The position numbers were made by a program, and so were the translations under genes. A stretch of 64,000 nt of DNA from Octopus vulgaris. Lineage: Eukaryota. The notes below the pieces were generated by a model, which ran no database searches, was not told the DNA's origin, and saw only the letters and a program-made list of their open reading frames with translations. The DNA is taken from assembly GCA_951406725.2 (NCBI GenBank), contig OX597819.1, positions 135,470,001 through 135,534,000 on the forward strand. The letters run 5' to 3'. Shown one piece after another: positions 15,177 to 56,500 of this stretch (the stretch's first letter is position 1; every line of letters begins with the position of its first letter).

Positions 15177-15468
15177 TAATCCAAACAAGAAAACAGAAAA
15201 AAAGGAGAAAAAAAGAGAAAAAAAACACAGCAACGCAGGACGTGGAACAATTAAAGTATTATTGACGCTCAGGAAAGAAGGGAAGGAGGGTTTAACGTTT
15301 CGAGCGGAGCTCTTCGTCGGAAACAAGGAGAAGGAAAGATCCCAAGGAGGGAAGACAGAGGAGAACATATTTGAGCTGGTGGTGCTCAAGAGATCACATG
15401 TTGAAAGAACAGAAGTTGAAGGTAGTTGAAACATGGTTTTATAAGGCAAGAGAGTTCCAAAAAAGGAA

Positions 15469-15470
<2 letters not shown>
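15172..15470 (-). mobile_element. PLE pLTR-like or retrozyme-like fragment
   Basis: Hammerhead-like motif ~120 nt from a (TA)n-abutting terminus. Confidence 0.45.
15290..15324 (-). ncRNA. Minimal hammerhead-like motif (U4C variant)
   Basis: GTTT-CCGACGA-aGAGC tcc GCTC-GAAA-CG-TT-AAAC; palindromic ACGU stem III. Confidence 0.6.
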
Positions 15471-15501
<31 letters not shown>

Positions 15502-15639
15502 AAGATGAAAAGTGTGTTTGTGCGTGCGTGTGTGTGTGTGTATTTTTGGTGAATAAAGGCAATGACAAAGCCAGCTGTCATAATGACTACTAGCTGTTTG
15601 TATCAGGCCAGGTCAAAGCCGGGTCAAAAAACAGAGGGC

Positions 15640-17735
15640 TATATGTATCATGTGTGTGTGTTGTTTGTAGTGTGTGTGTGTGCGTGTGTGTGTACGCGCG
15701 TGCGAGTGAATGTATGTATATATGTGTGCGTGTGTGTACAATGTAGGGGCTTGTATGTGTGTTTATATGTGTGTGTGTATGTATGTGTGTATGTGTGTGT
15801 ATGTGTATGTATGTATGTATATGTATGCGTGTGTGTATGTATGTATGTGTGTATGTGTGTGTGTATGTGTGTATGTATCTATATATGTATGTATGTATGT
15901 ATGTATGTGTGTGTGTAGGTATGTGTGTGTTTATGTATGTATGTACGTACGTATGTATGTATGTGTGTGTGTATATGTGTGTGTGTGTATGTATGTACGT
16001 ATGTGTGTATGTATGTATTTTTGCATGCGTGTATGTGTGTGTATACATATGTATGTTTATGTATGTGTGTGTATGTATGTATGTATCTATGTATGTAGTG
16101 TGTATGTGTGTGTGTATGTATGTATATATATGTGTGTGTATGTGTGTGTATGTATGTATATGTGTGTGTATGTATGTGCGTATGTATGTATGTATGTGTG
16201 GGTGTATGTGTGTAAGTGTGTATGTATGTGTGTGTGTGTAAGTGTGTGTGTATCTATGTATTTACGGGTGTATGTGTGTAAGTGTGTGTGTGTATGTATG
16301 TATGTATATGTACGCGTGTGTCTATGTATGTATGTGTGTATAGTATGTGTGTGTATGTATGTATGTGTACATGCGTGTATGTGTGCATGTGTGTGTCTGT
16401 ATGTATGTATCTATATGTATGTGTGTGTGTATGTATATATGTGTCTATGTATGTATGTGTGTATGTATGTGTGTATGTGTGTGTGTATGTATGTGTGTGT
16501 GTATGTTTATATGTATGTAAGTGTGTGTGTGTATGTATGTGCATATGTATGTGTGTGTATGTATGTGTGCATGCGTGTATGTGTGTATGTGCGTGTGTGT
16601 ACGTATGTGTGTATATGTATGTGTGTGTATGTATGTATATGTATGTATGTGTGAATGTATCAATGTATGTGTGTATGTGTGTGTGTATGTATGTGTGTAT
16701 TCGTGTATGTGTGTATGTGTGTGGGTATGTATGTATGTATATATATGTGTGTGTATGTGTGTGTATGTGTGTATGTATGTGTATGTGTGTGTGTGTATGT
16801 ATGTTTGTGTGTGTGTGTATGTGTGTGTATGTATGTGTGTATGTGTGTATGTATGTATGTATGTGTGTGTGTACGTGTGTGTATCTATGCATGTATGTAT
16901 GTGTGCGTGCCTGTATGTGTGTATGTGTGTATGTGTGTGTGTATGTATGTATGTATATGTATGCGTGTGCATGTGTGTGTATGTGTGTATGTATGTGTAT
17001 GTGTGTGTATGTGTGTGTATGTATGTTTGTGTGTGTGTGTATGTGTGTATGTATGTGTGTATGTGTGTATGTATGTATGTATGTATGTGTGTGTACGTGT
17101 GTGTATGTATGCATGTATGTATGTGTGTGTATGTATGTGTGCGTGTGTGTGTGGGTATGTGTGTGTATGTATGTGTGTATGTATGTGTGTATGTATGTGT
17201 ATCTGTGTGTGTATGTGTGTGTATGTATGTTTGTGTGTGTGTGTGTATGTATGTGTATGTGTGTGTATGTGTGTGTATGTATATTTGTGTGTGTGTGTAT
17301 GTGTGTATGTATGTGTGTATGTATGCATGTATGTATGTATGTATGTATGTATGTATGTGTGTGTGTACGTGTGTGTATGTATGCATGAATGTATGTGTGT
17401 GTATGTATGTGTGCGTGCGTGTGTGTGTGGTTATGTGTGTGTGTATGTATGTGTGTATGTATATGTATGTAAGGTACATGTGCGTGTGTGCGCTTACGTG
17501 CGTGTATCTGTGCGTCCCAGCTAGGTGTTTATAGGAGTGTGCGTATCCGTAGGAGTATTGTCCCTGGTGTGTGTGCACAGTCATGTGTGTGTGTGCGCGT
17601 GGGGGTGTGTGGGTGTGTGGGTGTGCGTATGGGTGTGGAAGTATGTGTGCGTACATGTGCATGTACGTTGTGTGTGTGTGGTGTGTTGGGAGTAGGTGTG
17701 TTCGTGGGTACGTGAGTATGTGTGTGTGTGACTGC
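15640..17735. repeat. Compound (TG)n/(TATG)n low-complexity tract
   Basis: Directly visible; source of the spurious CVYM/HTYI ORFs. Confidence 0.95.
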
Positions 17736-17989
17736 ATAAGGACAATTATAAAAATTAAAAAAATAAAAAATAAATAATAATTAATAAACAAAAAATAAAA
17801 ATAAAAGATGCGTGGGGTGAAGTGGAGCGCAGTCACTAAGAGGAGGGGGCTGTGTTGAGTCCGTGTGGGGTTAGAGTCCATGTATATATATAAATATATG
17901 TATGTAGGTCCCGGGTTGATTCGGGGTTAACCACAGTAAGTAAGGTACTCAATACATAGCAGAGTAAAATTAGTTTATTATATAGAAGG

Positions 17990-18040
17990 AGCTTCTACAG
18001 GACTAGTACTGTTTCATTCAAGAGAAATCTTCAGGAAGCT
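17990..18040 (-). ncRNA. Type I hammerhead ribozyme (left arm)
   Basis: Reverse complement of 25365-25415. Confidence 0.8.
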
Positions 18041-18191
18041 ATTTAACAAGAATTGTATTAGCATTTATACATTTAGGCAGGTTTAAAGGAGTGGTGGTGG
18101 GGGACTTTTTGGGGGTAGGCATAGCGCAAAAGTATCATACTTGGGGGAGTGGTCAAGGAGTCAGTGGTAAGTTAGATGAAAGAATAGATAG

Positions 18192-18230
<39 letters not shown>

Positions 18231-18439
18231 AAATAAAAAAAAAATAAAAAAAAATAAAAAATATTAAAAATATATATAAAAAAATATATATATAAAATAT
18301 ATATATAAAAAAATATATATATATAAAAAAAGGGGGGATAGAGTTATAGGTAAATAAGGAGATTCTCACTTATACCTATACACACATGTATACGTATCTA
18401 CACACACATACATACATACACATATATACACACACATAT

Positions 18440-18477
<38 letters not shown>

Positions 18478-19357
18478 CATATGTACACACATACATACAT
18501 ATCTACATACACACATACATACACCCGCCCACATATACAAATTTATACACATGCACATGCCTATACCTGTCTACACATACACACACGTATATATGCATAC
18601 ACTCACTCCCATGCATGCACGCATACACACATGTATATATATATATATATATATACCCACGACCACACATACATATATACACATAAAAATATATATTCAT
18701 ACGCACATACACTCATGCACACACAACACACCTAGTTCCCTATATACACATATTTACACCTATATATACATACACCCACATACACCTATGTACACATATA
18801 TATATATAAACATATACACGCATACATATATATACATGTGTGCACATACATACATACACACATATATACATACACATACACATACACATGTGTACCTATA
18901 CATACCTACACATACACACATACATACATACAAATATACATATACATATATATATATACAATCCAATACAGGCCCATTCCTTAATTTTAATTTTATTATC
19001 TTCATTTATTACTTTTGTTATCTTTGATCGCTAGGGCTAAGAATCCTGGCAATGGCTGCATGTCCATTTGTCTGTCTACTAGAAGGCAAGTACTCATTCC
19101 CGCACGCACACTCATTAGCACGTACATTCACCCATTCGTACACTCATACACATACACGTACGCACGCGTTATATTCATACATACAAACATCTACATACGT
19201 TCACGTATATACACATACGTACTCGTACCTACAGATTCGTGTCTACACTTTAGGAGGCTAGTCTATACATATACACCAATAAATATACATATATATATAT
19301 ATATACCCGCATATACATACACACACACACATATATACTCCTACATACAGATACATA

Positions 19358-19419
<62 letters not shown>

Positions 19420-19911
19420 CATACACATACACACATACATATACACACACATACATACACATATATATATACATACACAAACATATATACACACATATAT
19501 ATATACATACACACATACACACATACATACGTATACATACATACATACATCCATACATCCATACTTACATGCATTTATACGCATACACACACCCATCTAT
19601 ATATATGTATATATATATATATATATATACACACTCACACATACATATACAAATCTACGCACACACATACATACATACACGTATACGCATACACGCACAT
19701 ACACATATACATGCGTACCCATACACGTGCACACACGCACGCGCATCCATATATATACACACACACACATATATATACACGTGTGCAAGCATACATACAT
19801 ACTCATACGCGCACACATACTTACAAATACATATATGCACACACTTACACACATATATATACATACACATATACATGCATACATACATATATGCATACAT
19901 ACACACACGCA

Positions 19912-19957
<46 letters not shown>

Positions 19958-20020
19958 TATATACACATATAGATATATATACACATACATACACATACAC
20001 ATACATACACACATATACAC

Positions 20021-20053
<33 letters not shown>

Positions 20054-20227
20054 TACATATATACACATATACATACATATACATACACACACACATACAT
20101 ATATACATATACACTGATACACATACCCATACATACACATGCATATACTTATATCACTACATACTCACATATATAAACATATATACATATACACACATAC
20201 ATATATACATGTACATACACATACGTA

Positions 20228-20326
<99 letters not shown>

Positions 20327-20587
20327 TACATATACACATATACATGTATACATACGCAAAAATGATACACATATATACACATACACACACACAGACAGAT
20401 GCATATACATACATATATATATATATATAAATATATAACTACATATCTATATAAATACATACATAATACACATATACACACACATATATATACATTCATG
20501 CATATACATATACAAGTATACATACACATACATACACACACACGCGCACACATACATATACACACACACATATACAAATACATACAT

Positions 20588-20631
<44 letters not shown>

Positions 20632-20994
20632 ACATGTACACATATACACATGTATATATATCAACAAGGGAGGGTAAAGTTAATTAGTTATTAATCAATT
20701 TCATCAAGTGTTCAGTATGTAAAGGGACCATTATTATTTTGAGTAAACAATGTTAGAGGGAAAAAATTCTCTAAGTAGTGGAAGAGGCTAAAAAACTTTA
20801 TTGGCTGCTATTTCTAGAAAGTTTAGTATGTGGCAAAGTAATTTATTTTATTTTCCTAAGCCCTAATTATATAATATTTTATACATACATACACATACAT
20901 AAGCACATACATTTACACATACATATGCATATACATATATACACATATACATACAAACACATATACACATATACACACACACACACATACAAGC

Positions 20995-21045
<51 letters not shown>

Positions 21046-21313
21046 AATATATATACATATATATTTTTACATGCATACATACACACACACACACATAATA
21101 CATGCGTATATTCCTACTGTACCCATGCATTTCTATACATATATACATACATACATACGATACACATATACAAGCGTGCACATATAATATGTGAAAGGTC
21201 TTAGGAGAAAAGGTAATCGGGGGTGCTAGGGGAACAGTGGGGTTGGGGGGGGTTGTAGGGGGGGGTTGTAGGGGGTTGTAGGGGGGTTGTAGGGGGTTGT
21301 AGGGGGGTTGTCA

Positions 21314-21710
21314 TCAATCAGGTTGCCGGGTAGGTCTATAGTTCTTGTAGTTCGCATACTTCTTATGCATGCAATTTGGGGAGTGTTCTGAAAATTTGTT
21401 AAGGAGAGGGCCTTTGGCGAACAAGATCTCTAGGCTCTCTGATATGCATAGGTCACAGCAGGTATGTCCTCCTGTGTACGAGCGCGCCTTCTGTAGTAGT
21501 TTCCACTTGGTCTTGAAGGGGATTGAGTTCCTTTTAAGGTACCAGATGTGGGCGGCGAGGGTGGTTTGGTTGGATTTATCCTGTCGCCGGAACGAGTGTG
21601 TATGTGCATACCAGCGGGTCTTAAAGCTGTTTGACGTCATTCCAATGTAGGATTTACTTTTATCGTCAAGGCCTGATCTTACCTCGCATTTATATACTAG
21701 ATCCCTCTGT
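21314..21710 (-). pseudogene. Mirror copy of the PLE GIY-YIG fragment
   Basis: Identical translation on the minus strand. Confidence 0.88.
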
Positions 21711-22112
21711 TGCCTACAGAGGGATCTAGTATATAAATGCGAGGTAAGATCAGGCCTTGACGATAAAAGTAAATCCTACATTGGAATGACGTCAAACAGC
21801 TTTAAGACCCGCTGGTATGCACATACACACTCGTTCCGGCGACAGGATAAATCCAACCAAACCACCCTCGCCGCCCACATCTGGTACCTTAAAAGGAACT
21901 CAATCCCCTTCAAGACCAAGTGGAAACTACTACAGAAGGCGCGCTCGTACACAGGAGGACATACCTGCTGTGACCTATGCATATCAGAGAGCCTAGAGAT
22001 CTTGTTCGCCAAAGGCCCTCTCCTTAACAAATTTTCAGAACACTCCCCAAATTGCATGCATAAGAAGTATGCGAACTACAAGAACTATAGACCTACCCGG
22101 CAACCTGATTGA
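21711..22112 (+). pseudogene. PLE GIY-YIG endonuclease C-terminal fragment
   Basis: In frame from the loop: CLQRDLVYKCEV..KSYIGMTSNSFKTRWYAH..LAAHIWYLK..W..CDLCISE..LN..CMH. Confidence 0.88.
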
Positions 22113-22363
22113 TGACAACCCCCCCCCCCCCTACAACCCCCCCCCCTACAACCCCCTACAACCCCCAACCCCACTGTTCCCCTAGCACCCCCGATTACCT
22201 TTTCTCCTAAGACCTTTCACATATTATATGTGCACGCTTGTATATGTGTATCGTATGTATGTATGTATATATGTATAGAAATGCATGGGTACAGTAGGAA
22301 TATACGCATGTATTATGTGTGTGTGTGTATGTATGCATGTAAAAATATATATGTATATATATT

Positions 22364-22410
<47 letters not shown>

Positions 22411-22775
22411 GCTTGTATGTGTGTGTGTGTGTGTATATGTGTATATGTGTTTGTATGTATATGTGTATATATGTATATGCATATGTATGTGTAAATGTAT
22501 GTGCTTATGTATGTGTATGTATGTATAAAATATTATATAATTAGGGCTTAGGAAAATAAAATAAATTACTTTGCCACATACTAAACTTTCTAGAAATAGC
22601 AGCCAATAAAGTTTTTTAGCCTCTTCCACTACTTAGAGAATTTTTTTCCCTCTAACATTGTTTACTCAAAATAATAATGGTCCCTTTACATACTGAACAC
22701 TTGATGAAATTGATTAATAACTAATTAACTTTACCCTCCCTTGTTGATATATATACATGTGTATATGTGTACATG

Positions 22776-22816
<41 letters not shown>

Positions 22817-22975
22817 ATGTGTGTATGTATGTATTTGTATATGTGTGTGTGTATATGTATGTGTGCGCGTGTGTGTGTATGTATGTGTATGTATACTTGT
22901 ATATGTATATGCATGAATGTATATATATGTGTGTGTATATGTGTATTATGTATGTATTTATATAGATATGTAGTT

Positions 22976-23008
<33 letters not shown>

Positions 23009-23094
23009 GTATGTATATGCATCTGTCTGTGTGTGTGTATGTGTATATATGTGTATCATTTTTGTGTATGTATACATGTATATGTGTATATGTA

Positions 23095-23135
<41 letters not shown>

Positions 23136-23152
23136 GTGTATATATATGTATA

Positions 23153-23183
<31 letters not shown>

Positions 23184-23364
23184 GCATACGTATGTGTATG
23201 TACATGTATATATGTATGTGTGTATATGTATATATGTTTATATATGTGAGTATGTAGTGATATAAGTATATGCATGTGTATGTATGGGTATGTGTATCAG
23301 TGTATATCTATATATGTATGTGTGTGTGTATGTATATGTATGTATATGTGTATATATGTATGTG

Positions 23365-23401
<37 letters not shown>

Positions 23402-23460
23402 ATATGTGTGTATGTATGTGTATGTGTATGTATGTGTATATATATCTATATGTGTATATA

Positions 23461-23508
<48 letters not shown>

Positions 23509-23992
23509 TGCGTGTGTGTATGTATGCATATATGTATGTATGCATGTATATGTGTATGTATATATATGTGTGTAAGTGTGTGCATATATGTATTTGTAAG
23601 TATGTGTGCGCGTATGAGTATGTATGTATGCTTGCACACGTGTATATATATGTGTGTGTGTGTATATATATGGATGCGCGTGCGTGTGTGCACGTGTATG
23701 GGTACGCATGTATATGTGTATGTGCGTGTATGCGTATACGTGTATGTATGTATGTGTGTGCGTAGATTTGTATATGTATGTGTGAGTGTGTATATATATA
23801 TATATACATATATATAGATGGGTGTGTGTATGCGTATAAATGCATGTAAGTATGGATGTATGGATGTATGTATGTATGTATACGTATGTATGTGTGTATG
23901 TGTGTATGTATATATATATGTGTGTATATATGTTTGTGTATGTATATATATGTGTATGTATGTGTGTGTATATGTATGTGTGTATGTGTATG

Positions 23993-24054
<62 letters not shown>

Positions 24055-24938
24055 TATGTATCTGTATGTAGGAGTATATATGTGTGTGTGTGTATGTATA
24101 TGCGGGTATATATATATATATGTATATTTATTGGTGTATATGTATAGACTAGCCTCCTAAAGTGTAGACACGAATCTGTAGGTACGAGTACGTATGTGTA
24201 TATACGTGAACGTATGTAGATGTTTGTATGTATGAATATAACGCGTGCGTACGTGTATGTGTATGAGTGTACGAATGGGTGAATGTACGTGCTAATGAGT
24301 GTGCGTGCGGGAATGAGTACTTGCCTTCTAGTAGACAGACAAATGGACATGCAGCCATTGCCAGGATTCTTAGCCCTAGCGATCAAAGATAACAAAAGTA
24401 ATAAATGAAGATAATAAAATTAAAATTAGGGAATGGGCCTGTATTGGATTGTATATATATATATATGTATATGTATATTTGTATGTATGTATGTGTGTAT
24501 GTGTAGGTATGTATAGGTACACATGCGTATGTGTATGTGTATGTATATATGTGTGTATGTATGTATGTGCACACATGTATATATATGTATGCGTGTATAT
24601 GTTTATATATATATATGTGTACATAGGTGTATGTGGGTGTATGTATATATAGGTGTAAATATGTGTATATAGGAAACTAGGTGTGTTGTGTGTGCATGAG
24701 TGTATGTGCGTATGAATATATATTTTTATGTGTATATATGTATGTGTGGTCGTGGGTATATATATATATATATATACATGTGTGTATGCGTGCATGCATG
24801 GGAGTGAGTGTATGCATATATACGTGTGTGTATGTGTAGACAGGTATAGGCATGTGCATGTGTATAAATTTGTATATGTGGGCGGGTGTATGTATGTGTG
24901 TATGTAGATATGTATGTATGTGTGTACATATGTATATG

Positions 24939-24980
<42 letters not shown>

Positions 24981-25364
24981 ATATATATGTGTATGTATGT
25001 ATGTGTGTGTAGATACGTATACATGTGTGTATAGGTATAAGTGAGAATCTCCTTATTTACCTATAACTCTATCCCCCTTTTTATATATATATATTTTTTT
25101 TTATATATATATTTTATATATATATTTTTTTATATATATTTTTTATATTTTTTATTTTTTTTTATTTTTTTTATTTTATTATTTTTTTATTTTTTATTTT
25201 TTTATTTTTTTATTTATCTATTCTTTCATCTAACTTACCACTGACTCCTTGACCACTCCCCCAAGTATGATACTTTTGCGCTATGCCTACCCCCAAAAAG
25301 TCCCCCACCACCACTCCTTTAAACCTGCCTAAATGTATAAATGCTAATACAATTCTTGTTAAAT

Positions 25365-25415
25365 AGCTTCCTGAAGATTTCTCTTGAATGAAACAGTACT
25401 AGTCCTGTAGAAGCT
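25365..25415 (+). ncRNA. Type I hammerhead ribozyme (right arm)
   Basis: AGCTTC-CTGAAGA-tTTC tctt GAAt-GAAA-CAG tactagtc CTG-TA-GAAGCT; 6-bp stem I; predicted cleavage after GUA at 25409. Confidence 0.8.
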
Positions 25416-25445
25416 CCTTCTATATAATAAACTAATATAAATATA

Positions 25446-25534
<89 letters not shown>

Positions 25535-25603
25535 CTGTGTGTATGTATGTATGTATGTATGTATGTATACTCTTTTGCCCGCTAGCATAAATAGATGGAC
25601 GTA

Positions 25604-25738
<135 letters not shown>

Positions 25739-25747
25739 CATACATAA

Positions 25748-25980
25748 GGGCGGCAAGCTGGCAGAAACGTTAGCACGCCGGGCGACATGCGTAGCCGCAT
25801 TTCGTCTGCCGTTAAGTGTTCTGGGTTCAAATTCCGCCGAGTTCGACTTTGCCTTTCATCCTTTCGGGGTCGATAAATTAAGTACCAGTTACGCACTGGG
25901 GTCGATGTAATCGACTTAATCCCTTTGTCTGTTCTTCTTTGTCCCCTCTATGTTTAGCCCCTTGTGGGTAGTAAAGAAAT
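25748..25980 (+). mobile_element. tRNA-derived SINE with MetaSINE-like central domain
   Basis: GGTTCAAATTCC B-box; GCCTTTCATCCTTTCGGGGTCGATAAATTAAGTACC resembles the Meta domain (recognised from memory). Confidence 0.75.
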
Positions 25981-25989
25981 ATATATATA

Positions 25990-26320
25990 TGGCTCAGTGG
26001 TTAGAGCGTCGAGCTTACGATCGCGAGGTTGTGAGCTCGAATCCCGGACCGGGCTGCGCGTTGTGTTCTTGAGCAAGGCACTTTATTTCACGTTGCTCTA
26101 GTTCACTCAGCTGTAGAAGTGAGTTGCGACGTCACTGGTGCCAAGCTGTATTGACCTTTGTCTTTCCCTTGGATAACACTGGTGGCGTGGAGAGGTGAGG
26201 CTGGTATGAATGGGCAACTGCTGGTCTTCCATAAACAACCTCGCCCGGACTTGTGTCTAGGAGGGTAACTTTCTAGGTGCAATCCCATGGTCTGTGTCGT
26301 GACCGAAGGGGGTCTCCGAA
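25990..26320 (+). mobile_element. tRNA-derived SINE
   Basis: TGGCTCAGTGG A-box, GAGCTCGAATCC B-box; body shared with 73-322. Confidence 0.8.
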
Positions 26321-50518: not shown

Positions 50519-53500
50519 AAAAGAAACGAGAGAAAGAAAACGAGAGAGAAATGAATGTGTGAGAGACAGGAAGAATGATAAAAAGAAAACGAGAGGGATG
50601 TGGGAGAAGGAAGAGATAAAAGCGAGAGAGCGAGAAAAGATGGAGAGAGCGAGAAAAAGAAACGAGAGAATAAAAGAGAGAGATGAATGAGTGAGAGACA
50701 GGAAGAATGTTAAAATGAAAACGTTTGGGAGGGAGAAGGAGATAAAAGCGACAGAACGAGAAAAAAAGGAGAGAGAGAGAAAAAGAAACGAGAGAAACAA
50801 AGAGAGAAATGAATGAGTGAGAGACAGGAAGAATGATAAAAAGAAAACGAGAGGGAGGGTGAAGGAGATAAAAGCGAGAGAGCGAGAAACAAAGGAGAAA
50901 GAGAGAAATGAATGAAGGAGGGAAAGGATGAATGATGAAAGAAAACGAGAGGGAGAAAGAAGGAGACAAAGGCGATAGAGCGGGAAAAAAAGGAGAGAGT
51001 GAGAGAAAAAGAAACGAGAGAAACAAAGAGAGAAATGAATGAGTGAGAGATAGGAAGAATGATAAAAATAAAACGAACGAGAGGAAGGCAGATGGAGATC
51101 AAAGCGACAGAACGAGAAAAAAAAGAAGAGAGAGAGAAAGAAACGAGAGAAGGAAAGACAGAAACGAATGAGTGAGAGACAGGAAGAATGACAGAAAGAA
51201 AACGAGAGGGAGAAAGAATGGGATAAAAGCGAGAGAGCGAGAAGAGAAGGAGAGAGAGATAAAGAAACGAGAGAAACGAAGAGAGAAATGAATGAGTGAG
51301 AGTGAGTAAGAATGATAAAAAGAGAGAAGGAGAAGGAGATAAAAGCGATAGAGTTAGAAAAAAGGAGAGAGAGAGAAAAACAAACGAGAGAAACAAAGAG
51401 AGAAACGAATGAGTGAGAGACAGGAAGAATGATAGAAAGAAAACGAGAGGGAGAAAGAATGAGATAAAAGCGAGAGAGCGAGAAGAAAAGGAGAGAGAGA
51501 AATAGAAACGAGAGAAAAAAAGAGGGAAATGAATGAGTGAGATAGGAAGAATGATAAAAAGAAAACGAGAGGGAGGGAGAAGGAGATTAAAGCGAGACTG
51601 CGAGAAAGAAAGAGAGTGAGAGAAAAAAGAGAGACATGAATGAGTGAGAGACAGAAAGAATGATAAAAAGAAAACGAGAGGGAGGGAGAAGGAGATAAAA
51701 GCGAGAGAACAAGAAAAGAAGGAGAGAGAAAGAAAAAAAGAGAGAAATGAATGAGAGACTGGAAGAATGATAAAAAGAGAACGGGATGGAGGGAGAAGGA
51801 GATAAGAGCGAGAAAGCGAGAAACGAAGGAGAGAGAGAGACAAAGAAACGAGAGAAAAAAGAGAGAAATGAATGAGTGAGAGACAGGAAGAATGATAAAA
51901 AGAAAACGAGTGGGAGGGAGAAGGAGAAAAAGCGAAAGACCGAGAAATAAAGCGGAGAGAGAAGAAAAGAAACGAGAGAAACAAAGAGAGAAATGAATGA
52001 GTGAGAGACTGGAAGAATAATGAAAATAAAACGAGAGGGAGGGAGAAGGAGATAAAAGCAAGAAAGCCAGAAAAGAAGGAGAGAGCGAGAAAAAGAAACG
52101 AGAGAAAAATAGAGAGAAATGAATGAGTGAGAGACAGGAAGAATGATAAAAAGAAAACGAGTGGGAGGGAGAAGGAGAAAAAAGCGAGGGAGCGAGAAAA
52201 AGAAGGAGAGAGCGAGAAAAAGAAACGAGAGAAAAATAGAGAGAAATGAATGAGTGAGAGACAGGAAGAATGATTAAAAGAAAACGAGAGGGAGGAAGAA
52301 GGAGGTAAAAGCGAGAGAGAGAGAAAAAGAGTGAGTGCGACAAAAAGAAACGAGAGAAACAAAGAGAGAAATGAATGAGTGAGAGACAGGAAGAATGATA
52401 AAAAGAAAAAAAGAGGGAAGGAGAAGGAGATAAATGCGAGAGTGCGAGAAAAAAAGGAGAGAGAGAGAAAAACAAACGAGAGAAACCAAGAGAGAAACGA
52501 ATGAGTGAGATACAGGAAGAACGATAGACAGAAAACGAGGGGGAGAAAGAATGAGATAAAAGCGAGAGAGCAAGAATAAAAGGAGAGAGAGAAATAGAAA
52601 CGAGAGAAAAATGAGAGAAATGAATGAGTGAGAGACAGGAAGAATGTTAAAAAGAAAACGTGAGGGAGGGCGAAGGAGATAAAAGCGAGACTGCGAGAAA
52701 AGAAAGAGAGAGAAAAAGAAACGAGAAAAACAAAGAGAGAAATGAATGGGTGAGAGACTGGAAGAATGATAAAAAGAAAACGGGATGAAGGGAGAAGGAG
52801 ATAAGAGCGTGAATGCGAGAAACGAAGGAGAGAACGAGAAAAAGAAACGAGAGAAAGAAAGAGAGGAATGAATGAGTGAGAGACAGGAAGAATGATAAAA
52901 AGAAAACGAGTGGGAGGGAGAAGGAGAAAAAGCGAGAGAGCGAGAAAAAGGAGGAGAGAGCGAGAAAAAGAAACGAGAGAAAAAAGAGAGAAATGAATGA
53001 GTGAGAGATCGGAAGAATGATTAAAAGAAATCGAGAGGGAGGGAGAAGGAGATAAAATCGAGAGAGAGAGAAAAAAGGAGTGTGCGAGAAAAAGAAACGA
53101 GAAAAAAATAAAGAGAAATGAATGAGTGAGAGACAGTAAGAATGATAAAAAGAAAAAAAGAGGGAAGGAGAAGGAGATAATAGCGATAGAGCGAGAAAAA
53201 AAGGAGAGAGAGAGAAAAACGCTGTCTAGCTTTGTTTCTCCTTCTCCCTCCCATTCGTTTTCTTTTTATCATTCTACCTGTCTCTCACTCATTCATTTCT
53301 ATCTATTTTTCTCTCGTTTCTTTTTCTCTCTCTCTCTCGTTCGTTTCTCGCTTTCTCGCTCTTATCTCCTTCTCCCTGCATCCCGTCGTAAGTGTGTATT
53401 CTTATCATTCCTTCCAGTCTCTCACTCATTCATTTCTGTCTTTGTTTCTCTCGTTTCTTTTTCTCTCTCTCTCTCTCTTTCATTTCTCGTTCTCTCCTTC

Positions 53501-56500
53501 TATCTCCTTCTCCCTCCATCTCGTTTTCTTAATATCTCTTCCTGTCTCTCACTCATTTATGTCCCTCTTTTTCTCTCACCCTCTTTCTTTTCTCGCAGTC
53601 TCGCTTTTATCTCCTTCTCCTTCCTCTCGTATTCTTTAACATTCTTCCTGTCTTTCACTCATTCATTTCTCTCTTTTTTTCTCTCGTTTCTATTTCTCTC
53701 TATCTTTTTCTCGCTCTCTCGCTTTTATCTAATTCTTTCTCCCTCTCGTTTTCTTTCTATCATTCTTCCTGTCTCTCACTCATTCGTTTCTCTCTTTGTT
53801 TGATAAAAGCGAGAGAACGAAAAAAAGAGAGAGAGAGAGAGAAAGAAACGAAAGAAAAAAGTAGAAATGAATGAGTGAGATACAGGAAGAATGATAAAAA
53901 GAAAACGAGTGGGTGGGAGAATGAGATAAAAGCGAGAGAACGAGAAAAAAAGAGAGAGATATTCGTGTATAAATAAACGTGAGAGAAAAAAGAAAGAAAT
54001 GAATGAGTGAGAGACAGGAAGAATGTTATAAAGAAAAGGAGAGGGAGTATGAAGGAGATAAAAGGGAGAGAGCGAGAAAAAAGGAGAGCGAGTGAAAAAG
54101 AAACGAGAGAAAAAAGAGAGAAATGAATGAGTGAGAGACAGGAAGAATGATGAAAAGAAAACGGGAGGGAGGGAGAAGGAGATAAAAGCGAGAGAGCGAG
54201 AAAAGAAGGAGAAAGAGAGAAATGAATGAGTGAGAGAAGGGAAGAATGATAAAAAGAAAAGGAGAAGGAGAAAGAAGGAGATGAATGTTAGAGAGCGAGA
54301 AAAGAAGGTGAGAGAGAGAAAAAGAAACGAGAGAAACAAAGAGAGAAATGAATGAGTGAGAGACAGGAAGAATGATAAAAAGAAAAAAGATGGAAGGAGA
54401 AGATGTATGTATGTATGTATGCGTGTGCAAAAAAAAGGAGACTGAGAAAAACAAACGAAAGAAACAAAGAGAGAAACGAATGAGTGAGAGGCAGGAAGAA
54501 TGAAAGAAAGAAAACGAGATGGAGGGAGAATGAGATAAAAGCGAGAGAGCGAGAAACAAGGATAGAGAGAGAATTAGAAACGAGAGAAAAATAGAGAGAA
54601 ATGAATGAGTGAGAGACAGGAAGAATGATAAAAAGAAAACGAGAGGGAGGGAGAAGGAGATAAAAGCGAGAGAACGAGAAAAGAAGGAGAGAGAATGAAA
54701 AAAAGAGAGAAATGAATGAGTGTATGTATGTGTGTGTGCGTGTGTGTGTGGGTATGTGTGAGAATAAGAAAGAGAGAGAGGGAGAAGGTGATAAAAGCGA
54801 GAGAACGAGAAAAGAAGGAGAGAGAGAGTGAAAGAAACGAGAGAAAAAAGTAGAAATGAATGAGTGAGAGAGAGATGATAAAAAGAAAACGGGATGGAGG
54901 GAGAAGGAGATAAGATCGAGAAAGCGAGAAACGAAGGAGAGAGAGAGAAAAGGAAACGAGAGAAAAATAGAGAGAAATGAATGATTGAGAGACAGGAAGA
55001 ATGATAAAAAGAAAACGAGAGGGAGGGAGAAGGAGAAAAAAGCGAAAGAGCGAGAAATAAAGGGGAGAGAGTGGAAAAGAAACGAGAGAAACTAAGAGAG
55101 AAATGAATGAGTGAGAGACAAGAAGAATGATAAAAAGAATACGAGAGGGAGGGAGAAGGAGAGATCTGTGTGTGAAAGCGAGAATTGAAGGAGAGAGCGA
55201 GAAAAAGTAACGAGAGAAAAATAGAGAGAAATGAATGAATGAGAGACAGGAAGAATGATAAATAGAAAACGAGAGGGAAGAAGAAGGAGATAAAAGCGAG
55301 AAAGCGAGGATTGAAGGAGAGAGCGAGAAAAAGGAGCGAGGGAACCAAAGAGGGAAATGAATGAGTGAGAGACAGGAAGAATGTTAAAAAGAAAACGAGA
55401 GGGATGGAGAAGGAGATAAAAGCGAGAAAGCGAGAAAAGAAGGAGCGAGAGAAAAAAGAAACGAGAGAAAACTAGAGAGAAATGAATGAGTGAGAGACAG
55501 GAGGAATGATAAAAAGAAAACGAGTGGGAGGGAGAAGGAGAAAAAAGCGAGAGAGCGAGAAAAAGAAGGAGAGAGCAATCAAAAGAAACGAGAGAAAAAT
55601 AGAGAGAAATGAATGAGAGACAGGAAGAATGATAAAGGAAAACGAGAGGGAGAGAGAAGGAGATGAAAGCGAGAGAACAAGACAAAAGAAAGAGTGAGAA
55701 AAAGAAACGAGAGAAACAGAGAGAGAAATGAATGAGTCAGAGACAGGAAGAATGATAAAAAGAAAAATAGTGGGAGGGAGAAGGAGATAATAGCGATAGG
55801 GCGAGAAAAAAGAGAGAGAGAGAAAAACAAACGATAGAAACAAAGAGAGAAACGAATGAGTGAGAGAAAGATAGAATGATAGAAAGAAAACGAGAGGGAG
55901 AAAGAATGAGATAAAAGCGAGAGAGTGAGAAAGATGGAGAGAGAGTAAAAGAAACGAGAGAAAAAAGAGAGAAATGAATGAGTGAGAGACACGAAGAATG
56001 ATAAAAGGAAAACGAGAGGGAGAGAGAAGGAGAGAAAAGCGAGAGAACAAGACAAAAGAAAGAGTGAGAAAAAGAAACGAGAGAAGCAAAGAGAGAAATG
56101 AATGAGTGAGAGACAGGAAGAATGATAAAAAGAAAACAAGTGCGAGGGAGAAGGAGAAAAAAACAAGAGAACAAGAAAAAAGGAAAGAGTGAGAAAAAGA
56201 AATGAGAGAACGAAAGAGAGAAATGAATGAGTAAGAGAGAGGAAGAATGATAAAAAGAAAACGAGAGGGAGGGAGAAGGAGATAAAAGCGATTGAGCGAG
56301 AAAAGAAGGAGAGAGCGAGAAAAAGAAACGAGAGAAAAAAAGGAGAAATGAATGTGTGAGATACAGGAAGAATGATAAAAAGAAAACGAGTGGGTGGGAG
56401 AAGGAGATAAATGCGAGAGAACGAGAAAAAAGGAGAGAGAGAAAAAGAAACAAGAGAAAAAAGAGAGAAATGTATGAGTGGGAGGCAGGAAGAATGTTAA

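Follow-up and report, generated by a model that had tools for sequence, protein, structure and literature searches.

A 7.5-kb hairpin in the Octopus vulgaris genome consists of two head-to-head copies of the 3′ part of a Penelope-like element, a layout that is the norm for its family

To understand the origin of a large inverted repeat in the Octopus vulgaris genome, a 64,000-nucleotide stretch of contig OX597819.1 (positions 135,470,001 to 135,534,000; hereafter the window) was analysed. Two copies of the 3′ portion of a young Hydra-clade Penelope-like element (PLE), joined head to head and inserted in a TA tract, make up the repeat. Across this genome, the hairpin or inverted double-copy shape is the norm for the PLE family, of which the window locus is a striking member. 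The distribution of tails, loops and variants between the arms points to a twin target-primed synthesis, in which each of the two nicked target strands primes a cDNA on a single RNA, at different start sites, before these cDNAs are joined head to head. We assign this reading a probability of about 0.55.

The two arms cover positions 17969–21710 (3742 nt) and 21716–25436 (3721 nt) and enclose the loop TGCCT (21711–21715). In a global alignment of the arms, no difference was found in the innermost 409 nt. Beyond, 18 substitutions and about 40 indels were counted, nearly all of them lying within microsatellites, simple repeats or A-rich runs. The features of the insert, in window coordinates, are as follows.

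17880–17900, no strand: left TA-rich target flank, about 20 nt.
17901–17968, minus strand: PLE tail, restricted to the left arm; where copies stand in tandem, the same sequence continues into the 5′ region of the open reading frame (ORF).
17969–21710, minus strand: left (tailed) arm, 5′-truncated, from reference position 1861 to the 3′ end.
17990–18040, minus strand: left-arm hammerhead-like motif.
21314–21710, minus strand: GIY-YIG-type endonuclease fragment, left copy.
21711–21715, plus strand: 5-nt loop, element-sense and part of the right (untailed) arm, with a blunt join to the left arm.
21711–22112, plus strand: GIY-YIG-type endonuclease fragment, right copy, with the native ORF end.
21716–25436, plus strand: right (untailed) arm, paired portion.
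22113–25264, plus strand: microsatellite-rich 3′ untranslated region (UTR), mirrored in the left arm and found in other copies too.
25265–25366, plus strand: candidate retained intron (GT...AG), proposed from sequence alone, with its acceptor at the 5′ edge of hammerhead helix I.
25365–25415, plus strand: hammerhead-like motif, with core CUGAAGA at 25371–25377, helix I of 6 bp, helix III of 4 bp and a predicted cut after 25409.
25437–25570, no strand: right TA/TATG-rich target flank.

The insert contains the putative endonuclease end and a 3.3-kb microsatellite-rich 3′ region, and no reverse transcriptase (RT); therefore it cannot encode one. The idea that the 3′ microsatellites are host DNA was rejected, as the same repeats occur in sibling copies. 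TA-rich tracts flank both ends, and the two flanks do not mirror each other. When a target-site duplication was looked for, both ends fell in TA tracts and the empty allele was not seen. A first-pass annotation, made from the letters of the window only, had described a near-perfect hairpin of this size with a 5-nt loop, a hammerhead at each outer end, TA-rich tracts outside and arms differing in microsatellites and a few substitutions. All of this was borne out, the hammerheads as hammerhead-like motifs, including the arm difference that it quoted (18981 versus 24429). The left-arm extension that it put at about 60 nt is real, with a length of about 68 nt. Its statement that the reading frame crosses the loop on the plus arm only did not hold: the frame is open on both strands (two 153-aa stop-to-stop ORFs), and only the native codons (C-L) across the loop are specific to the plus arm. 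It had also overlooked that PLE inserts of this architecture are already in the literature, that the extra stretch on the left arm is the tail of the element and that such a layout is usual in this genome.

The identity of the element was established from its sibling copies. The coding part of the arms gave 41 full-length matches at 99–100% among the 40 scored of 475 candidates. One sibling copy carries a 562-aa frame, and the complete unit measures about 5.6 kb with its 3.3-kb microsatellite 3′ UTR. A structure model of this single frame, from sibling copy L022 (predicted local distance difference test, 83), matched RTs including TERT (3du5, E 1e-7), bacterial RTs scoring equal to TERT. RWR and DKT motifs were found in copy L036. 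The CxCX5C linker and the CxxC and CxH motifs are present, and a CCHH motif was judged by eye to be absent. In the putative endonuclease, VY...YIG, R, E and N are conserved in 89 homologs and agree by eye with the published Hydra alignment. Pfam searches with the fragment, the longer ORF and six homologs gave nothing above cut-off: the longer ORF had no RT match, and an endonuclease match, below cut-off, was obtained for one of the six homologs and not for the query. No endonuclease was among the structure matches listed for the RT-bearing sibling model, and a sequence search of the PDB returned nothing relevant. A preference for (TA)n insertion sites was observed across copies. By its motifs and (TA)n targets, the element fits an endonuclease-containing (EN+) Hydra-clade PLE, in line with the PLE identity first proposed. 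The left extension corresponds to the PLE tail, as tandem copies run on from it into the ORF 5′ region; partial tandems, which form pseudo-long terminal repeats (pLTRs), were seen in L036, L089, L098, L100 and L111. Between RT and endonuclease, a difference in the length of a C run shifts the frame in 33 of 38 occurrences (L003–L045, overlapping loci being counted twice); the window copy ends short of it. The shift could reflect mobilisation in trans from a frameshifted master, slippage of the ribosome or homopolymer error.

The hammerhead end has 4805 exact matches in the genome and one tail variant has 1281, an older tail variant being missed by this query. Among 39 other tail-anchored copies, 28 have the head-to-head two-armed layout; the remaining 11 are single, tandem, gap-cut or unresolved. 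In addition, a gapped pattern detected at least 607 mini-hairpins that fold at a 4-nt palindrome lying at the 5′ strand of helix I. These are about 200 nt long and contain two hammerhead copies and one tail around the same fold palindrome (for example L118–L175). They resemble miniature inverted-repeat transposable elements in shape but are retro-derived. The family also shows that near-perfect palindromes of kilobase size persist in an animal genome. Some copies lie in a TA tract directly beside an earlier copy, forming nested clusters (L031, L046/L074, L082), and L031 shows a small templated duplication at the fold. Two copies (L034, L088) end at N runs, where a palindrome centre might be expected.

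Which arm carries the tail and which arm is longer constrain how the inserts can be made. For the long inserts, 60 junctions were examined, of which 47 were two-armed and kept and 13 were dropped; 28 of the 47 had been chosen for having a tail. Where both ends were seen, one tail was found in 38 of 39 long inserts, the last running into a tandem, and none had two. In minis, which were not selected by their tail, exactly one arm was tailed in 57 of 58 and one mini had two tails. The longer arm, by more than 20 nt, was the untailed one in 15 long inserts and the tailed one in 22, and in 15 of the 47 neither arm contains the other. Similarly, extra bases at mini centres belonged to the untailed arm in 18 cases, to the tailed arm in 13 and to neither in 18; 18 of 50 centres were perfect. 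The window insert has its tail on the left arm alone and its five loop bases on the right arm alone, therefore neither arm contains the other. Plain self-copying of one tailed cDNA was rejected, because it is often the untailed side that holds the loop and the longer arm; as the window loop belongs to the untailed arm, this process could not yield the window insert either.

The ends of the arms and their variants were also compared. Eight of the short arms, some with and some without the tail, stop within about 30 nt of one another at the edge of a T-rich tract, in the manner of an RT stop, and the tailed arms of L099 and L113 are only 200–300 nt long beside untailed arms of 4.6–5 kb. As a stop hotspot, the window break itself is weak at best, its exact start being found in only three copies genome-wide (window, L039, L043). 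At a diagnostic base that splits the family about evenly, both arms carry the same state in 42 of the 43 minis scored (15 of 58 were unscored), and two unrelated RNAs as templates were rejected on this ground. Lineage variants were shared between arms in 48 cases and arm-specific in 11, and singletons were shared in 35 and arm-specific in 42. Overall, the one-sided tail, the ownership of loop and extra length by either arm and the common template indicate that both target ends were primed and that the arms come from one RNA or one source locus.

In the reading that we favour, the element protein, supplied in trans by another copy, would cut both target strands. Priming at the distal start site by one target end would give the tailed arm, while the other end, priming at the proximal site, would give the untailed arm. 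Both cDNAs would then join at their 3′ ends, each serving as the template for the second strand of the other. A near-perfect hairpin would form when both stop near the same place, either the common 5′ end of the RNA or a common RT stop; in the window, the two cDNAs would have stopped 5 nt apart. We infer every enzymatic step of this scheme. It agrees with in vitro results on the Anolis Poseidon element PAc (Frangieh et al. 2024, PMC11167929), which cuts AT-rich targets on both strands and extends both, starts reverse transcription at two sites that delimit the tail, uses uncleaved hammerhead RNA as template and is predicted to form a dimer. The first-pass annotation had offered either a truncated cDNA that folded back or two priming events that met. 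The second fits better, provided that one template served both arms, whereas plain fold-back fails since neither arm contains the other. The hope that the window would give direct evidence on second-strand synthesis was too strong for one locus.

Several points weigh against twin priming on one RNA. Strand displacement, which PLEs are not known to perform, would be needed to reverse-transcribe the same stretch of one RNA twice, and two RNAs from one source locus would leave an identical pattern. Of the 50 mini centres, 16 fall short of a perfect centre by a single base, a join that fold-back with a 3-nt loop would produce naturally. Several junctions sit in microsatellites, so that their positions are approximate. 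Finally, five variants shared between arms were searched genome-wide. Two recur elsewhere, that of L048 with 21 matches including eight inverted pairs and that of L041 at two further loci, showing that shared variants can derive from a source lineage. But the three others are private to their own pair: 21725 and 25432 are found only in the two arms of the window, and the L093 variant only in its pair. No source copy was seen for these, as would also be expected if RT errors had been copied by fold-back or if one arm had converted the other.

The first of these processes enters the best-placed alternative, which we hold to be unlikely but worth serious attention. Here, either cDNA would stall, fold back and copy itself, and a short cDNA from the other target end would capture the strand, supplying or omitting the tail. 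Such capture accounts for the private variants on both window arms and for the centring of the 607 hairpins on a 4-nt palindrome. It is also consistent with the few self-pairing nucleotides at the centres of some inserts (L032, 6 nt; L094, 3 nt; L081, 4 nt) and with an excess of near-symmetric inserts: ends fall within 20 nt in 9 of 46 inserts, the window being excluded, against 0.72 expected over 20,000 permutations. Two of these nine had been picked for their palindromic look, and the tail-anchored subset gives 6 of 28. Self-priming has indeed been proposed for PLE palindromic junctions (PMC3846280). However, fold-back with capture still requires two primed ends, and, as no native base could pair at the join in the window, it would need an untemplated one there. 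The excess of shared singletons that it predicts in symmetric inserts was not seen, at low power (14 in 11,367 sites versus 21 in 19,881 for asymmetric inserts). As shared singletons are not commoner in symmetric inserts, nothing hints at a separate route of DNA copying.

Less probable still is a history in which fold-back of tailed cDNA first made longer palindromes, and later centre deletions and arm-to-arm conversion produced the spacers and shared variants. Long palindromes tend to lose their centres. Such a history would allow either arm to be the longer and would explain the private shared variants. It is difficult to reconcile with the clustering of short-arm ends at fixed element positions, with the disparate arms of L099 and L113, with the 18 minis that are still perfect and with the 18 substitutions by which the window arms still differ.

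That the hairpin was assembled from a fold-back long read is very improbable, as a 65-nt short-read contig of depth 11 from run X1 spans 21681–21745 across the loop with 0 differences, the flanks are unmirrored, the arms differ, the ends equal the tailed and untailed ends of the family and hundreds of such inserts each have their own junctions. The contig argues against a chimera of one read, the artefact that the first-pass annotation had asked to be checked, and the hairpin is confirmed as genuine. On the side of an artefact, the loop contig was seen in one of the four runs examined, no record crosses both flanks, and X1 is possibly the assembly's own sample, for which reason it was not counted as a second individual. 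Most loop words were present in one of 24 listed sequencing runs, and no RNA run was among those listed with them. Runs X2, X4 and X8 gave family sequence and no contig over the loop, which does not imply that the loop is absent.

The motif at each outer end has a CUGANGA and GAAA core, an NUH site and helices I (6 bp) and III (4 bp). By core and helices it would be a type I hammerhead, with predicted cleavage. Helix II is closed by U-U instead of the usual G10.1-C11.1 pair, Rfam at gathering and E-value thresholds found no hammerhead in the insert, and the folding energy was no better than that of shuffles (z -0.17). An older copy, L132, differs at the N position of the CUGANGA core. The geometry was correctly described at first: only the downstream hammerhead is sense in any one transcript. 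The acceptor of the candidate 102-nt intron coincides with the 5′ edge of helix I, which is the fold site of the mini-hairpins. A genomic search for spliced copies, at one donor position, gave 0 matches; splicing of the RNA lies outside this search. Drosophila virilis Penelope has an intron whose end meets the 5′ end of helix I (PMC4209133). We tentatively suggest, at somewhat less than even odds, that PLEs integrate by default through hairpins: a protein dimer would prime both target strands on one RNA at two start sites, each cDNA would template the second strand of the other, and the minis would be run-off products at the RNA boundary set by the intron acceptor at helix I. If so, the family seeds hundreds of hammerhead-capped palindromes, potential sources of double-stranded RNA, across the genome.

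Elsewhere in the window, a degenerate (GT/AT)n tract upstream of the insert (15450–17700) is only about 70% like the element's own microsatellites. Downstream, two adjacent elements resembling tRNA-headed short interspersed elements (25745–25980 and 25990–26320) each adjoin a TA tract, as judged by eye. A GA-rich satellite array with a period of about 125 nt occupies 33100–64000, with about 580 nt of satellite inverted inside it (about 53220–53800); the window end is about 55 kb from the contig end.

In twin priming of LINE-1, both target strands prime on one RNA, giving an inversion of non-overlapping RNA segments. Unlike these, both octopus arms copy the same 3′ region, which results in an inverted duplication. 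The literature search was thin on subscription papers, including older Penelope work; within it, nothing was found on PLE hairpins of kilobase size, on folding at a fixed site at helix I or on template tests made arm by arm, nor was there anything on this in the passages found of a 2026 retrozyme preprint. In Adineta vaga Penelope (Arkhipova et al. 2013, PMC3846280), head-to-head inverted pLTRs with a tail on one and palindromes at the junction are described as in octopus; these palindromes, of 18–38 bp in low-copy families, were read as self-priming on an antisense template. The octopus family differs by its kilobase arms, its hundreds of hairpins and a loop owned by either arm. Opposite-strand hammerhead pairs are likewise known in Schistosoma PLEs, there about 100–700 bp apart (Cervera and De la Pena 2014, PMC4209133). 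The octopus motif differs from that account by a 4-bp helix III and the lack of a G-C pair closing helix II, and the accessible part of the account holds no fixed fold site or arm analysis. PAc is of a different clade, and its report leaves second-strand synthesis open and inverted products unexplained in the part accessible (PMC11167929).

The closest relatives are the Hydra-clade PLEs (Craig et al. 2021, PMC8557442), which share the RW(K/R), DKT, CxCX5C, CxxC and CxH motifs, the lack of CCHH and (TA)n targets; their C-terminal endonuclease and hammerhead have putative counterparts in the octopus element. RWR in place of RWK is also found in one published member, and inserts with an inverted 5′-truncated copy and a tail at one end are described. 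Members are generally <3 kb, which is a tendency rather than a strict criterion, with tails of 30–40 nt, whereas the octopus unit has about 5.6 kb, a 3.3-kb 3′ UTR and a tail of about 70 nt. The listed Hydra-1_Obim differs from the octopus family in the RT stretches compared. PLE second-strand synthesis, inverted copies and the one-sided tail are presented as unsettled in both PMC8557442 and PMC11167929. The family is a good test set for these questions: with thousands of near-identical ends and at least 607 hairpins of a single fold site, the ownership of tail, loop and variants by each arm can be counted, not argued from a few copies. Overall, the hairpin structure is of a published kind and common in this genome; the new part is its scale and the family-wide set of hairpins.

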